From Felis catus (lineage: Eukaryota), in the NCBI RefSeq assembly GCF_018350175.1, contig NC_058368.1:17982001-18046000 (forward strand): a DNA stretch of 64,000 nucleotides, read 5' to 3'. How positions within the stretch are numbered: the first letter of the stretch is position 1; every line of letters starts with the position of its first letter. The translations under genes were made by a program, and so were the position numbers. Under the pieces are notes generated by a model. It ran no database searches. It was given only the letters and a program-made list of their open reading frames with translations, and had not been told where the DNA came from. Shown here piece after piece: positions 14,274-39,500 of this stretch.

Positions 14274-14458
14274 TTTTTTTTTAAGTTTGATTATTTATTT
14301 TGGGGGGGGGGGCAGGAGAGAGGGAGAGAGAGAGAGAGAGAGAAAGAGAATCTGAAGCTGGCTCCATGCTGTCAGCACAGAGCTGGACACAGGGCTCGAT
14401 CTCATGACTTGAGCAGAAGTCAAGAGTGGGATGTTAACTGACTGAGCCACCCAGGTGC
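14274..14458 (-). mobile_element. Can-SINE
   Basis: antisense SINE consensus. Confidence 0.85.
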
Positions 14459-15179: not shown

Positions 15180-16900
15180 ATGGAACAGATTGAACAAATA
15201 CGTAAATATATTAGGGATAAAGGATGCCAAGTGTCTTACTGTTTGAGAAGGGAGCTATCAAAGAAAGGAAGAAAGCTAAAATAACTCCTGAGGTGTTGAT
15301 TGGAAATACAATGACTGATGTGAACTCGTGGTTTTCAAAATATGTAAATGGATATGTAGATATCTATGTAGGCAGGGAAAGTATGAGATAAGCCTGGATA
15401 TATTATTAGGACGGGAAACAAGCAAAAACTCTGATGGAGTTGTATCAGAAAGACACAGAAGCCAATTTGGATGGCCTCCCACTGGGCAAGCCTGAGAAAA
15501 TTTGAGCATTAAAATAAATAATAACAGCAATGGATTATGACTCATTGAATAAATAGAAAACCCTGAAGTCCTACACAAACAAGTTTAAAGTCTGATGAAA
15601 AGTGGAATATATACATAGTTTTTATATGTCAAATTATATACAAATTACTTCCCAATGAAACATTTACTAAATAGAAATGAGGAGAGTGTAACATTGCGTG
15701 AAGAATCCTCGCTGAAAACACCTTAATCAAATGATCAAGATGAACATTGGCAGTATGTGCACCAATTAAAATTCTGTATCACCTGATGAGATGCAATTAC
15801 AACACAGGTCAACGACAGTGATATTCCTACCAAGAATGCACACTGTGTCTCATTATGAGGAAACACAGAAAGTGAAATTGACACGCCTTCTATAATATAA
15901 CTGGCCTATAATCTTCAAGTGTCAAAGTCATACAAGTTAGAAAAGGTTGAGAAACTGTCCCAAACTGGAAGAGAATAAAGGGACTGGGGGAATAAAGACA
16001 TGATGTGATTCCAAACTATGTCTTTAAAATAAAACTTGAATGGGATCTGAGGATCTCTTTCAAGACCATCCAATAATCTACTGCCTGAAGGATTAGGAGA
16101 GCGCTGACAGAAGAGTAACCAGCTAGGGGGTGCTGGTGGCGTCTGGGACAGTTCCTAACAGCCTGTGCTGAGCGTCCGTTAGTGGGAGGCTCTGTGGTCA
16201 CCTGGGTCCGCAGTCCCCGGGGCTGGCCGGGTCTCCAGAGGCACTTCCTTCCTTTCCTCTGTCCTCCGCCCTCCACCTGCGCCCCCTCCCGGCACCCGGC
16301 ACCTCCCAGCTCGCCTCCTGGGCCGCGGGGCAGTCCTTGAAGGTCCAGCCGACTGCAGAGGGCGCGCAGCGGCCTCGGGGTTGGGGAGGGGGTGGTGGGG
16401 AGCAGGCCCTGCCGCTGATGCCTTGGGGCCGACCTGTCCCGACAGACTCAGCTGGCACACCTGTGCTGTCCCATCTCGCACCTCGGCGAGTGGAAGGCGT
16501 GTGGTTCTCCACGCCAGCTCCCGAGGCCGCGCGTCACAGCTGTCCCGGGGGGCTCGCAGTGTCCCGGAGCCGGAGCTGGAGCTAGAGCCGGAGCGGCGGC
16601 GTTGGCGCGTCTTGGCCTCTGTCTCCACCCAGGGAATGCTGCACCAGGGTGCAGGCGGCCGGGCCACCCCTGTTCCCCACCAGCACCACGGGCATCTTCC
16701 AAAGTCTTCACCCACTTCACCTACTCCCTGCACTGGTGGATGTCCTCAAGGGACTCGGTGCTGTTGATGGTGAATAAACAGTACATTTACGGGGCCAGTA
16801 AAATTTTAACGTCACTTTCCTGATTTTGATGTTGTTACTGTGGTTATGCTTGTGGGAAATGGACGCTGGAATATCTGATGTGGTGGGTATCACGTTGGGA
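15180..16900 (+). mobile_element. L1MC-like 3' region interrupted by the HRAS retrocopy
   Basis: aaacttgaatgggatctgaggat (to ~16054) resumes as ...tttcctgattttgatgttgttactgtggttatg (~16815-16850), which is contiguous in the L1MC consensus as I recall it. Confidence 0.65.
16054..16780 (-). pseudogene. HRAS: Processed, 5'-truncated HRAS retrocopy including the IDX alternative exon and the full 3' UTR
   Basis: Minus strand reads CLFTINSTESLEDIHQCRE*VKWVK..PVVLVGNRGGPAACTL..CSIPWVETEAKTRQ-RRRSGSSSSSGSGTL. HRAS reads [55 protein letters not shown], then IDX GSRSGSSSSSGTL. Exon-4A-like sequence follows, then a 3' UTR ending ATTATTGGATGGTCTTGA with a short A-rich remnant. Coding introns are absent. 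In-frame TAG at 16721-16723, frameshifts and a ~32-nt deletion. Confidence 0.9.
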
Positions 16901-16904
16901 TTCG

Positions 16905-17230
16905 ATTTTACTTTATTACAAGTGATGGGTTGGCCTGTTGATATTTCACTGACACTGATGGAAGACAGAAGACCTCCGGGTCAGAGACAAAGTAATTTAT
17001 TACTCATGCCACAGGATGCAGCATGAACATCCTTTGTGTCTGCCCCCCTTTCCCCCAAAGCCCCACGGAGGCAGCACAGAGGGCCCTGATGGCACCTGTG
17101 CAGTGGATTGAAATACAGAGAGAAACCCTGAACTTGGGGAACCTATTATATAGCAAACATTAAGCAAGACTGAACTTTGTCCAGAACATTACCTCATCCC
17201 TCAAGGTTGCTCACTGCCAACAGAACCTGG
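16905..17230 (-). mobile_element. ERVL-class LTR remnant (MER76/MER77-like)
   Basis: ctccgggtcagagacaaagtaatttattactcatgccacag signature; minus-strand AATAAA 16996-17001 and TATATAA 17146-17152. Confidence 0.55.
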
Positions 17231-17289
17231 ATACACACAAAGGGATAGAGTGTGTATCCATCAAAACGCACCAGTTTCTGTGGCGGTAT

Positions 17290-17740
17290 TCCTATTACCC
17301 TATCTCAAGATTGTGAGCAACTTAAGTGTCCATCAATAGTAGAGAATATAAGTGAATTACGGTGAGAATATATTCTTATACACAGAATATAAGTGAATGA
17401 ATGAAAAGGAATAAACCACCATTACGTAAAGCAGCGTGGATGAATCTCACAACATAAGGTTGAATGACCGCATCCAGATACAGAAAACATATAGTGTATG
17501 GTTTCATTTACACTAAATTGAAAAGCAGACAGAACCAATTTACAGAGATAGATGGCGATCGAGAGAGATAGAGGTCCTGGAGGTTGTGACTGGAAGGTTT
17601 GGGGAAGGCTTCTGAGATAGCAATAAATTTTTTTTCCTTCACGTGGGGCAGTTACATGCTTGTGTTCACTTCTTCATAATCCATTGAGCTGAATACTCAA
17701 GCTATGAGCTGTTTTCTGGGTTGTACTTTAACAAAAGATT
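17290..17740 (+). mobile_element. Old L1 (L1ME/L1MB-like) 3' fragment
   Basis: aagtgtccatcaatagtaga...tggatgaatctcacaacataa...tatggtttcatttac. Confidence 0.65.
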
Positions 17741-17849: not shown

Positions 17850-17937
17850 CTTTTTTTTTTAATTAAAAAATTTTTTAATGTTTATTTATCTTTGAAAGAG
17901 AGAGAGAGAAAGAGAGACAAAGTGCAAGCAGGGGAGG

Positions 17938-17993
<56 letters not shown>

Positions 17994-18121
17994 ATCCAAA
18001 GCAGGCTCCAGGATCTGAGCTGTCAGCACAGAGCCCTATGTGGGGCTCAAACCCACGAACTGCGAGATCATGACCTGAGCCAAAGTCGGTTGCTCAACCA
18101 ACTGAGCCACCCAGGCGCACC
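17850..18121 (-). mobile_element. Can-SINE with expanded (GA)n
   Basis: antisense consensus. Confidence 0.9.
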
Positions 18122-24537: not shown

Positions 24538-24763
24538 AATTTATTTTTTAATCTTTATTTTTGAGGGACAGAGAGAGAGAGAGAGAGAGAGAGACGGAGT
24601 GCAAGTGGGGGAGGGGCAGAGACAGAGGGAGACACAGAATCCAAGGCTCCAGGCTCCCAGGCTGTCAGCACAGAGCCCGATGTGGGGCTCGAACCCACAA
24701 ACCATGAGATCATGACCTGAGCCGAAGTCGGACGCTTAGCCGACTGAGCCACCCAGGCGCCCC
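24538..24763 (-). mobile_element. Can-SINE
   Basis: antisense consensus. Confidence 0.9.
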
Positions 24764-33875: not shown

Positions 33876-34899
33876 GAATTGCATAGTATCGTACTGAGTG
33901 AACGAACCATAATTTATTTGTTCAGTACTTTATCAGTGGACACTTTGGTTGTTTCTAGTTTCTCTTTCTCTTGCTCCCTCCCTCCTCTTTATTTTTCCCT
34001 CAATAACACTTGCAAGTTTTCCTCATCTAAGTCCTATGTATTTCTTATTGGGGTCATAGGGACTTTACAGTCGTTTCTTTTTGCCAGTTGAGCCATTTCT
34101 TCACTTGCCGGAACTGGGGTGAGTGTCTTGGTCAGGTATACACATATGTCTATGTCTATGTCTATACATACACACACGACAACGCAAATTAAGGACAAAA
34201 GCTAAATGGTTAGTGTTTCAGAAAAATACTAAACAAGAAGTTCAGAGATTTTGTTCTGATCCAATTTTTTTTTAAGTGAGAAAAGAAATGTAAAAAACAA
34301 CAATATTTGTTATCTAGACCCTCTGGGGAATTTATTTTTCATCTTATTACTCCCTCATCTGTTATTCTGCAGCCGCACTGGCTTTGGCCAATTCACGGAC
34401 CCTCCAAGTTTCTTCTTGTCTTTGGACCTTTCCATTTATACACTCTGGTGGGGGGGGGGGACGATTTCACCCCATGTTTCAGACTCTCCTTCAAATCTCA
34501 GTTTAAATGTGAACTCCTTACCAGACCTTCCTGGGTGAAGTAGGACCCTCCCTTCACTATTCTCTTTCAACTCTGCACTTCAATACCTTCAGAGCACTCA
34601 TCACAATCTTAACATTTAACTCCTCTGTCTCAGACATCCCCTAATGCCTACTCGAGTACCTAGCATGTAATACACCTTTAATAAATACTTTACAAAAAAA
34701 AAAATCAGGTAAAATGAATTTAATTACTGTAGAATTTATACGCCAGGCACGGGTGTCAAGTGTATGTTACTCAAACTTAGCTTAGATTTTCATTGATTCA
34801 GGATTCTGAAATCCTTTTAACCGTAATCCCCAAACTTTAAACACGATTATATTTCCAGACCGTATGCGAAACCTCCCCTCAGTCTCCCCTTCCCTAAGG

Positions 34900-35700
34900 A
34901 TCTGCCCACCTACCCCTCGCTCTAACCCCGCCTCTCCAGCAGCGTGGCTCAGCTGAGCAGGGCTGGCGGAGCCTTCCGGGACCCGGGGCGCATGCGCGCA
35001 GTCCACGCACACGCGCAGTACTCGCGCGGCCTGCGCGGGTCCCTGCCGAAAGCCTAGGGGGTCCCCTCGGAGTTGGGGGCGGGGTCTGCGACACTATGGC
35101 CGAGAGCGGTGGGGAAGTGGTAGCGGTACCCGCGTCCGCGGCTGCCAACGGCCTCAGCAATGGGGCAGGCGGGGGCCCGGCGCAGACCAACAACCCGCTG
35201 TCGCGGAAGCTGCATAAGATCCTGGAGACGCGGCTGGACAACGACAAGGTAACCGGGGCTATCAGGGCCCGGGGTCCAGAGTCGTCCGCGGAGTTGACCC
35301 TGGCCGGGGGAGGCGTTTGTCGACACCCACTGCCTCGTGCCTCCATCCCTCCGGATCCGGCGTGGGGCGAGTAGGAAGAGGGAGGCCGAGGGCCCCTGGA
35401 AAAGCGAAAAGGTGTCTTGGGTGTCACCCCTTATTTGAAAAACCTGTCCTGGAAGACTCTGGATCCAGGTAGCCAACCGTGGAATCTCCGTACCCCGGAG
35501 GTGTTCGGGGGTCTGAGCAGGGAGAGAGCAGAGCCCCGGGCAGGCTTAGAAGCCTGTGTCGGAGTAACTTACGAGACAAGACAACGCAAAGTGGGTAGGA
35601 GGGACTGGGGAACCCGGATAGGCATAATTGAGCGTTTCCACTTGACGAGTGAGAACGACTGGAGTGATTTGCAGCGCGAGAGAACTACTGTTTGCTCATA
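34900..35700 (+). promoter_or_regulatory. CpG-island promoter of COG6 (housekeeping type)
   Basis: Sharp GC/CpG rise around exon 1. Palindromic NRF1 site GCGCATGCGC 34988-34997; ETS/GABP-type CTTCCGG 34973-34979; GC box GGGGGCGGGG 35075-35084; no obvious TATA box. Confidence 0.85.
35096..35248 (+). CDS. COG6: COG6 coding exon 1
   Basis: ATG in strong Kozak context (actATGG); [51 protein letters not shown]; donor AAG|GTAACC. Confidence 0.96.
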
Positions 35701-36583: not shown

Positions 36584-39500
36584 CTCTTTCTCTTTATATG
36601 AAATTTATTGTCAAATTGGTTTCCATGCAACACCCAGTGCTCATCCCAACAGGTGCCCTCCTTAGTGTCTATGGTTTTTCTTCATCTTTTTCTTTTTTGT
36701 ACAGTAAATATTTGTAATGATCTTTTAAATATAGAACTGAATTTAAATAGCTTTACTGTTTTTGTCAGTCCAGCCAATATCGCACAATACCATGTTAACA
36801 GAAACACAGAAACCTGTTAGGATATATGCTAGTTCAGCTGTAGGAATTTGTATCTGGAGTTAGGGTACTATTGGATATCCTGGGCTTGGCCTTCTTTCTC
36901 CCTTCTGTCCTCTGTGCAGACTGTCTCTGTAAGAGAGGTCTCTTTCTTTCATGGTTTTAAATAGCAAAAAGGGTGGTGATTCTCAAATTTAGAACCCTGT
37001 TCTTGACATCTCTGCTCAACTCCAGATTTGTAACAGTCGGTTGTTCATATGACAGCTCCAATTAGATACCTGATCGACATCGTAAAAACTTAACACAGCC
37101 AGACCCTTAGTTTTTCTCCAAACTGGTTCTACTTTCCACTGTTAGTAAAGAACATCAGGTACCCACAGAAACAAAAAGTGTATAAATAGTTTTGATTCCT
37201 GTCATTGTTTTCACATCATGTATTCAGTCCATTAACAAATCCTATAGGCGCTGCCTTGAAAAAAAATAATTGTTTCGGATCATCTCCCCTTCGTCTGCAG
37301 TGCTACTGTCTTGTTCTAAGTCACTGTCAAATCTTGTTGGGATTATTTTAGTTTCTTCTTGCCTGCTTCCTTTCTTGCCACCCCCCCCCCCCGCCCCCCA
37401 TCTGCTCTCCTCACAAAGTTGGAATAAACTTTTGAACATATAAAGCACGTTATATTACTCCTTTGCCTAAAACCTCTAGTGGACTGGCTTGGTTCCCATG
37501 GATGCCTTTCCTGTCACTCAGGCCTCTGTTCCGAAGTCACCTCAAAGAGGCCTTCCTCTCTGCTGCCAGTTACTCCGTTCTCTGCCTGGAGGCTACAGGT
37601 GGTGCTTACTTCTTACATACTACATCCTTCCAGAGGTAGTTTATCTATTCACTGGCAAATATGCATGCACCATAGTCCTTTCTCTTTTGTAACAGTTGGT
37701 ATTATAACTGTTTCTATACCTTGTTGTCTCACTTACCGTATCTTGAAGTTTTATTAAGTACATAAAGAATTTTCATCTTTCCTAAAATGGATATATCATA
37801 ATTTCTGTAACCAATCCTCTTTAGATGGGCATTGAGGGTATTTCCAGTCTTGACACTTCCAGACTATCCTGCTGTGAATAATCTCTTATATATGCTACAA
37901 TACACAAGTAAGTACATCCTTACTGTGTTCTGGAAGTAAGTTTACTATTCAGTACTGTGAAGGCCATCCAGTATTTTTTTGATTGTTTAATGCAAACATA
38001 ATTTGAAAATGATTTCATTAAAATTTGGCTTGAGATTAGGAAAACATTTGAAAATCAGTCCCAGTAATTGTCTTCTGTTATCACTTGTGTAGGAGATGTT
38101 GGAAGCTCTCAAGGCACTTTCAACCTTTTTCGTTGAAAACAGTTTGCGGACTCGAAGGAATTTACGTGGAGATATTGAACGCAGAAGTTTAGCCATCAAT
38201 GAAGAGTTTGTCAACATTTTCAAGGAGGTGAAGGAAGTATGTAAATTCTTTTTGTTTTACATTTATTGAGAACTTAACTGTATGCCTGACTCTGTGCTAA
38301 ATATTTTTATGAATTGGGTTGATACGTTTACTATTCGTGTACCGTGTTCAAATAGAAGATTTAACTACTTACTCTTGCAGCATCTAGGTCCTTCACTTAG
38401 TGTGATTTCTGAATCTGTGACCTCCACTAATGCTGCTTCTTAAGAAGTTGTAACATTTGTTCTAGGATATTCTCTTAGAAATTTTTTTAAATGTTTATTT
38501 TTGAGAGAGAGAGAGACAGAATGAATGTGAGTAGGAGAGGGGCAAAGAGAGAGGGAGACACAGGATCCGAAGCAGGCTCCAGGCTCTGAGCTGTCAGCAC
38601 AGAGCCCGATGCGGTGCTCAAACTCACGATCCCTGAGTTCATGACCCGATCCAAAGTCGGATGCTTAACTGACTGAGCCACCCAAGTGCCCCGAAATTTT
38701 TGCTTTTTTAGCAACAAGAAGAAGAAACATTTCTTTAAATGACTTTCCAGTGAAATTTTTCCTTACTGAATAAACCTCCTTGGATAACCACTTCTCCATT
38801 GGAGATTAATTAGGAGTGAGTTATTTTAGTGCATCATAAATTATGAAATTTTCAGATTAATTCAGATCAGTTACTTCAGTGCATAAATAATTTATCGTAT
38901 TTGAGTGAGCAGTCTACTCACCATGGGGTAAAAATGGATTTTACTTATTATGTTATTATATTTATTATGCAATACTTTGTTAATTTTGTTAGTATCACGT
39001 AATTATTCTGTGTGAGGTGTATGTGTTATATATAATATTAATGACTAATTAATAAACAGATTATATTTAACAGTTCAGAAAGATTTCACTGAGGCTAAAA
39101 TCAGGAAGGTTGAAAGGAATGTTTGGTTAAGTGTTCATAAAAATAGAGTAGGGACGTTTGGGTGGCTCATTCGGTTGAGCTTTTGACACTCAATTTCAGT
39201 TCAGGTCATGATCTCATGGTTTGTGAGTTCGAGCCCTGCATTGGGCTCCATGCTGACAGTATGGAGCCTGCTTGGGATTCTCTCTCTCACCCTCTTTCTC
39301 TGCCCCTCCCCTGTTCACTTGTTGTCTCTGTCGAAGTAAATAAACATTAAGCAAAAATAGAGTACTCATGAGCACATCCAGATTGTGTTCTCTAAACACC
39401 ATTTCCCACTGAAAGAGACAATGTTGCACATATCAGAAAGCAGGGAAGCTAAGACTATGGGGAAAGCGGCAGAAGAACTTTGGAGCTAAGTTGATGAGGC

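Follow-up and report, generated by a model that had tools for sequence, protein, structure and literature searches.

The closest described system is the alternative splicing of HRAS itself. In the available text of one study, exon 5 of human HRAS, originally named IDX, is described as a conserved poison exon of 82 nt that carries a premature stop; when it is included, the outcome is either NMD or a truncated protein, p19, whose tail of 20 residues is conserved across species (PMC10334793). The same portion of that source gives an endogenous IDX inclusion of 8-10% in HEK293 cells, so that the word "rare", which a sequence-only reading of the DNA studied here had applied to IDX, overstates the case for what is called a "conserved poison exon" (PMC10334793); the assignment to IDX made in that reading stands, as shown below. 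In the accessible part of a second source, p19 is stated to be conserved in every mammalian cell, and a human IDX 19-mer is printed as an siRNA target (PMC2798614). A further human locus, c-Ha-ras2/HRASP, was historically called an HRAS processed pseudogene; according to the available text of PMC3729207, it was first mistaken for a pseudogene and is the ERAS gene, which makes it a different locus from the copy described here.

In this study, we analyzed a stretch of 64,000 nucleotides (hereafter "the window"; G000:C1:17982001-18046000), in which positions 16060-16781 of the minus strand very probably represent a dead, 5'-truncated HRAS processed pseudogene that derives from an IDX-included mRNA and decayed after retrotransposition. 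Processed pseudogenes were reportedly recognized by Shemesh et al. in 2006 as preserving splice variants of their parent genes, and the present copy resembles this idea in that an alternatively spliced form of HRAS mRNA survives in a retrocopy of the gene. In the literature searched, with partial coverage and without pseudogene databases, no description of an IDX-bearing HRAS retrocopy was found, which is weak evidence.

The copy agrees with IDX/p19 splicing of HRAS in containing, between exons 3 and 4A, the cassette exon of 82 nt with its usual junctions; the serine/glycine-rich peptide and the TGA after it can likewise be read from the relic. It differs from the known system in that its IDX is fixed in dead DNA, measures 86 nt owing to an extra hexamer and two 1-nt deletions, and carries the TGA out of frame.

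Parent locus and block anatomy of the copy

The genome of this species (2.43 Gb, 71 contigs) was searched at the DNA level with window 16790-16054 (minus strand) as query, and two candidate regions were scored, namely the query itself and a locus on contig C21. The latter returned four collinear matches:

query 10-64, 84% identity, E 1.7e-6
query 59-147, 74% identity, E 7.0e-5
query 191-249, 79% identity, E 3.8e-5
query 485-696, 72% identity, E 1.4e-18

This locus (L003) was identified as HRAS because the translation of its exon 3 is identical at 53/53 positions to residues 98-150 of human HRAS as present in solved structures (e.g. 7jih_A). It is organized as follows:

G000:C21:115030291-115033345, parent HRAS locus L003, 3055 nt
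L003 1554, end of coding exon 2, CAG followed by gtgagc
L003 1709-1868, exon 3, 160 nt
L003 1975-2056, IDX, 82 nt, acceptor cacAG, donor GTAAGT, in-frame TGA at 2035-2037
from L003 2509, terminal exon (4A), stop codon at 2627-2629

Read in frame from exon 3, the parent IDX encodes GSRSGSGSSSGTLWDPPGPP and then reaches its TGA (codon reading). The copy lies away from this parent, on contig C1. When the parent terminal exon was used as genome query, it returned the parent and the pseudogene alone (2/2 candidates scored). The pseudogene is the only other HRAS-derived place found by the two own-genome DNA searches, in which the best candidates were scored, so that this number is a lower bound. It may be added as an observation that the sole HRAS retrocopy found by these searches derives from the minor IDX isoform.

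Read from 16781 to 16060 on the minus strand, the blocks follow each other as the end of coding exon 2, exon 3, IDX, exon 4A and the 3'UTR as far as the probable poly(A) site. Identities were obtained from global alignments of each pseudogene block with the corresponding parent exon:

16060..16781, minus strand, the whole element, very probably an HRAS processed pseudogene, from codon 80 onward, collinear with the parent exons, 508/668 aligned bases identical, K2P 0.295
16728..16781, minus strand, exon 2 tail (codons 80-97), 45/54 identical to L003 1501-1554, 0 gap columns
16728/16727, minus strand, junction of exon 2 and exon 3, no intron base
16602..16727, minus strand, exon 3 with 2-nt and 32-nt deletions and an in-frame TAG at 16721-16723, 91/126 aligned bases identical, 34 gap columns
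16602/16601, minus strand, junction of exon 3 and IDX, no intron base
16516..16601, minus strand, IDX (HRAS exon 5, the p19 poison exon), 86 nt versus 82 nt in the parent, 64/81 aligned bases identical, 6 gap columns
16564..16594, minus strand, hexamer run containing the extra GGCTCC (Tandem Repeats Finder: period 6, 5.2 copies)
16534..16536, minus strand, relic IDX stop TGA, out of frame (alignment and frame reading)
16516/15, minus strand, junction of IDX and exon 4A, no intron base
16394..16515, minus strand, coding part of exon 4A, degenerate, p21 stop codon lost, 81/117 aligned bases identical, 9 gap columns
16060..16393, minus strand, HRAS 3'UTR with AGTAGA at 16077-16082 as relic of the parent AGTAAA, 227/290 aligned bases identical
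16515-16060, minus strand, exon 4A and 3'UTR jointly, 308/407 aligned bases identical, 74 gap columns

Over the block alignments with the parent, K2P falls from the value given for the whole copy to 0.241 at the 522 non-CpG positions. Introns are precisely missing at the three junctions, all of which coincide exactly with the AG/GT-flanked exon ends of the parent, and the consecutive parent exons remain collinear. In accordance with this, the local alignment score to an in-silico spliced parent was 225.5 with IDX and 174.0 without it (with bounds one base off at three exon ends). The minus-strand sequence that the sequence-only reading had quoted for this stretch was recovered by direct reading at the positions quoted with it, and its proposed exon order was borne out by both the own-genome search and the block alignments. 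The same applies to its view that both IDX borders and the junction at 16728/16727 are intronless, which the parent exon bounds and the alignment confirmed.

The match of the 86-nt block to IDX is specific. On the 3055 nt of L003, its best local match is 1976-2056 with a score of 37.5, the next best place reaching 12.0, and 0/500 composition-preserving shuffles of the block attain 37.5 (maximum 25.0). Within the 2.43-Gb genome, query 191-249, which covers most of the IDX block, matches HRAS intron D alone. The IDX segment of intron D is thus the counterpart of the block, both sides of which are formed by exon rather than intron sequence.

Compared with the parent exon, the 86-nt block carries a single additional GGCTCC and two deletions of 1 nt each. 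The extra unit, already reported by the earlier reading, is real and lies inside the hexamer run; in this genome it is absent from the parent IDX, which has 82 nt as in human. Its simplest explanation is a gain by slippage within the pseudogene. The first of the two deletions lies upstream of the TGA and shifts it out of frame; that the TGA is shifted had been noticed from the letters alone.

The published human IDX 19-mer agrees with the window block at 18/19 positions and with the parent IDX also at 18/19 (own reading). As a side observation, the parent IDX reads ...SGSGSSSG... (GGC), and AGC stands at that codon in both the pseudogene and the published human 19-mer; judging from these codons, the working HRAS gene seems to have changed the GGC/AGC codon after the copy was made.

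With respect to its surroundings, the Pfam family COG6_N matches the genome once, at window 38117-38236 (plus strand; 41.4 bits, above the cut-off). This places the pseudogene on the opposite strand, at a distance of about 21 kb upstream from the first COG6 coding exon detected, in agreement with the COG6-upstream location assumed beforehand. A CpG-island-like stretch at 34801-35600 (GC ≤0.73, obs/exp ≤0.95) precedes the first COG6_N-matching exon by about 2.5 kb and probably corresponds to the promoter and first exon of COG6. At 24674-24758 (minus strand), we noted a borderline tRNA match (29.2 bits, the gathering score being 29); rather than a tRNA gene, it may be a SINE derived from a tRNA.

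Ends, disablement and age

The Ras frame of the copy is broken by the TAG at 16721-16723, by the 32-nt and 2-nt deletions and by further indels, and the p21 stop is gone. One minus-strand frame runs ...IPWVETEAKTRQ into RRRSGSSSSSGSGTLRAPRDSCDARPREL... stop-free, and the other two frames contain CLFTINSTESLEDIHQCRE-stop-VKWVK and MPVVLVGN, which we take to be decayed Ras residues from about residue 80 on. An intact HRAS reading frame, as required of a functional retrogene, is absent; the pseudogene cannot encode a Ras protein and has decayed as non-coding DNA.

A different frame is still open. It comprises 187 codons at window 16185-16745 (minus strand), is not the Ras frame and has entered public collections as a predicted protein (P0001, P0004). 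We regard it as a gene-calling artefact of GC-rich DNA because it is lost in the close relative P0002, which is described below.

At the 5' side, exon 1 and the start of exon 2 were sought upstream of 16781, and this search gave low-complexity CT/AG matches at 17894-17994 and 14314-14350 alone. The matches of 17897-17993 to a CT-rich HRAS intron were rejected as spurious; this stretch is an (AG)n microsatellite with about 48 copies.

At the 3' side, homology stops at 16060 after ...GGTCTTGA. This point lies 17 nt beyond the AGTAAA-type hexamer, where the cleavage site of the parent would lie. The homology boundary reads ...GGATGGTCTTGA and coincides with the probable 3' end of the parent terminal exon; beyond it, unrelated genomic sequence follows in the parent and AAGAGA in the copy, the latter being all that remains where a poly(A) tail was sought. 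A search for a target-site duplication detected none, its best flank-to-flank score of 6.0 being reached by 87% of 300 shuffles; such an outcome is expected of an old insertion.

The age of the copy was estimated from zero-fold sites, chosen because a working gene should not have changed there. Within residues 80-165, 30/144 of these sites differ from the parent (JC 0.244), and 26/125 differ when CpG sites are excluded. The average mammalian neutral rate is about 2.2e-9 per site per year. Taken together, this suggests a pseudogene age of about 110 Myr, with a hand-calculated binomial 95% range of about 70-155 Myr, as computed from one general rate and 144 sites. The small sample or a GC-biased substitution pattern, which may have accelerated change, may inflate this estimate.

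Relatives in public sequence collections

Protein searches with the long open frame of the copy returned P0001/P0004, P0002 and P0003 alone, all of them ORFs from public assemblies. Of these, P0001 and P0004 come from the present species itself. P0002 shows 93% identity along the portion common with the 115-residue query and then runs out of frame. It retains the serine run with the extra unit and can therefore be assigned, on the basis of its residues, to a close relative; indels and a frame difference separate the copy from P0002, and as far as these two sequences indicate, the open frame is not conserved.

The third relative, P0003, has 100 aa and was found with an E-value of 6.2e-5 against 1.84 billion representatives. 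It starts with MTQRRPELEWRT in the IDX tail. The parent IDX tail, read in that frame, also has the TQR, and the junction of IDX and exon 4A falls inside L.WRT. Further on, P0003 and the copy have ...RDG.AQ... in common; the parent, in this register, has RDPATQ there. Translated back into the Ras frame, RDG.AQ corresponds to a change of ATCCGG to ATGGG, i.e. I163M and R164G (codon reading), and these two replacements are not expected in a working HRAS.

In a three-way alignment, P0003 and the copy agree against the parent in 19 columns, P0003 and the parent in 11, and the copy and the parent in 8; all three are the same in 23 columns and all differ in 20. The ungapped identity between P0003 and the copy is 44/87, which in simulations fits 0.25-0.5 substitutions per site. 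By genome-wide distances, such a value is larger than the distance within a carnivore family. P0003 is thus probably the same retrocopy in a distantly related mammal, a view resting on few shared derived residues.

Scans for orthologues by pattern gave 82 matches on genome contigs and 599 on metagenome contigs, none of which was confirmed, and p19 isoforms of other species were not among the protein search results. All sampled words of 15400-17400 were present in each of fourteen DNA or unclassified sequencing runs of one organism; ten further runs were RNA.

Origin of the copy, rival readings and base composition

The exon order and the junctions support the interpretation, put forward by the sequence-only reading, that an IDX-included mRNA was retrotransposed. 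A mature, polyadenylated, p19-type HRAS mRNA with the order exon 3, IDX, exon 4A and 3'UTR was very probably reverse-transcribed, presumably by the LINE-1 enzyme, and inserted upstream of COG6 at its present distance from the first detected coding exon. We infer that this took place about 100 Myr ago in germ-line cells of a placental mammal ancestor. Either reverse transcription or later loss would have left the part from codon 80 onward, and the copy would then have decayed as non-coding DNA.

A different route to the same arrangement would start from an ordinary p21 mRNA or a DNA-level duplication, to which an IDX-like block was added later by gene conversion, incomplete intron loss or the chance growth of a GC-rich repeat. 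The block does include a hexamer microsatellite, which can grow by slippage. However, homology spans the whole exon from the first to the last base, including its non-repetitive part, and both block ends are the splice sites of the parent without any intron base. Moreover, the K2P of the IDX block (0.246) lies inside the range of the other blocks (0.198-0.40), and P0003 also has the IDX tail joined to exon 4A. Because of the whole-exon span, the in-range divergence and the presence of the block in P0003, we consider it extremely improbable that the copy arose by duplication at the DNA level or that the block was gained later.

Base composition bears on a second rival, according to which the copy was co-opted as a GC-rich, CpG-island-like regulatory element or as a non-coding RNA gene upstream of COG6. 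The copy has a GC content of 66% and a CpG obs/exp of 0.57, and this ratio climbs to 0.6-0.75 across 16301-16700. Its surroundings are AT-rich: the region has 36-40% GC, and windows of 200 nt taken up to about 700 bp away on each side have 28-50% GC and mostly low CpG ratios. Differences from the parent are biased in the same direction, with W>S at 64/230 W sites versus S>W at 57/438 S sites, and the bias is also seen in the exon 2 tail and exon 3, for which the parent can be expected to show the ancestral state (W>S 21/77 versus S>W 15/103). A total of 27/44 CpGs of the pseudogene are absent from the parent, and the IDX block has 12 CpGs by direct count (11 by an alignment-based tally) versus 6 in the parent. 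This retained GC and CpG content is not predicted by plain neutral decay and points to GC-biased gene conversion or to protection of some kind. In addition, three RNA runs contain about half of the sampled words of 15400-17400, word presence not being evidence of expression. Against co-option stand the indels and the frame difference relative to the close relative P0002 and the type of the residue differences between the two, of which 5/6 are CpG-to-TpG/CpA changes (codon reading), as expected of methylated, unprotected DNA; on these codons, they argue for such DNA at the locus. GC-biased gene conversion alone could also explain the composition and would be our preferred explanation, a regulatory role being a minor rival. 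Overall, we regard co-option as very improbable and retain the reading as a decayed processed pseudogene of an IDX-included mRNA.

A more far-reaching proposal, which we put forward tentatively as a real but somewhat doubtful possibility, is that the copy is orthologous across mammalian orders. It would then record directly and physically, at an age of about 70-155 Myr, that germ-line or early-embryo cells of an early placental mammal spliced IDX into polyadenylated HRAS mRNA. If this is true and the copy is the sole one found, the IDX isoform would have been unusually abundant, stable or accessible to LINE-1 despite being an NMD target.

For practical work, IDX primers or probes used in this species should be checked against the copy; interference is unlikely at 79% identity.

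The significance of the finding is modest because the conservation of IDX among mammals has already been published. The antiquity of IDX, which the sequence-only reading had drawn from the copy, was in this respect an accepted conclusion, based on conservation in the available portions of the two sources (PMC10334793, PMC2798614); what the fossil adds is evidence of actual germ-line splicing. The pseudogene supports what conservation had suggested and overturns nothing. Conservation indicates that an exon-like element was kept, whereas a retrocopy indicates that the exon was spliced into mature mRNA in cells that transmit DNA, and it can be dated. In this way, the copy would provide a minimum age for the use of the HRAS IDX poison exon and a hint that an NMD-prone isoform was present in the germ line.
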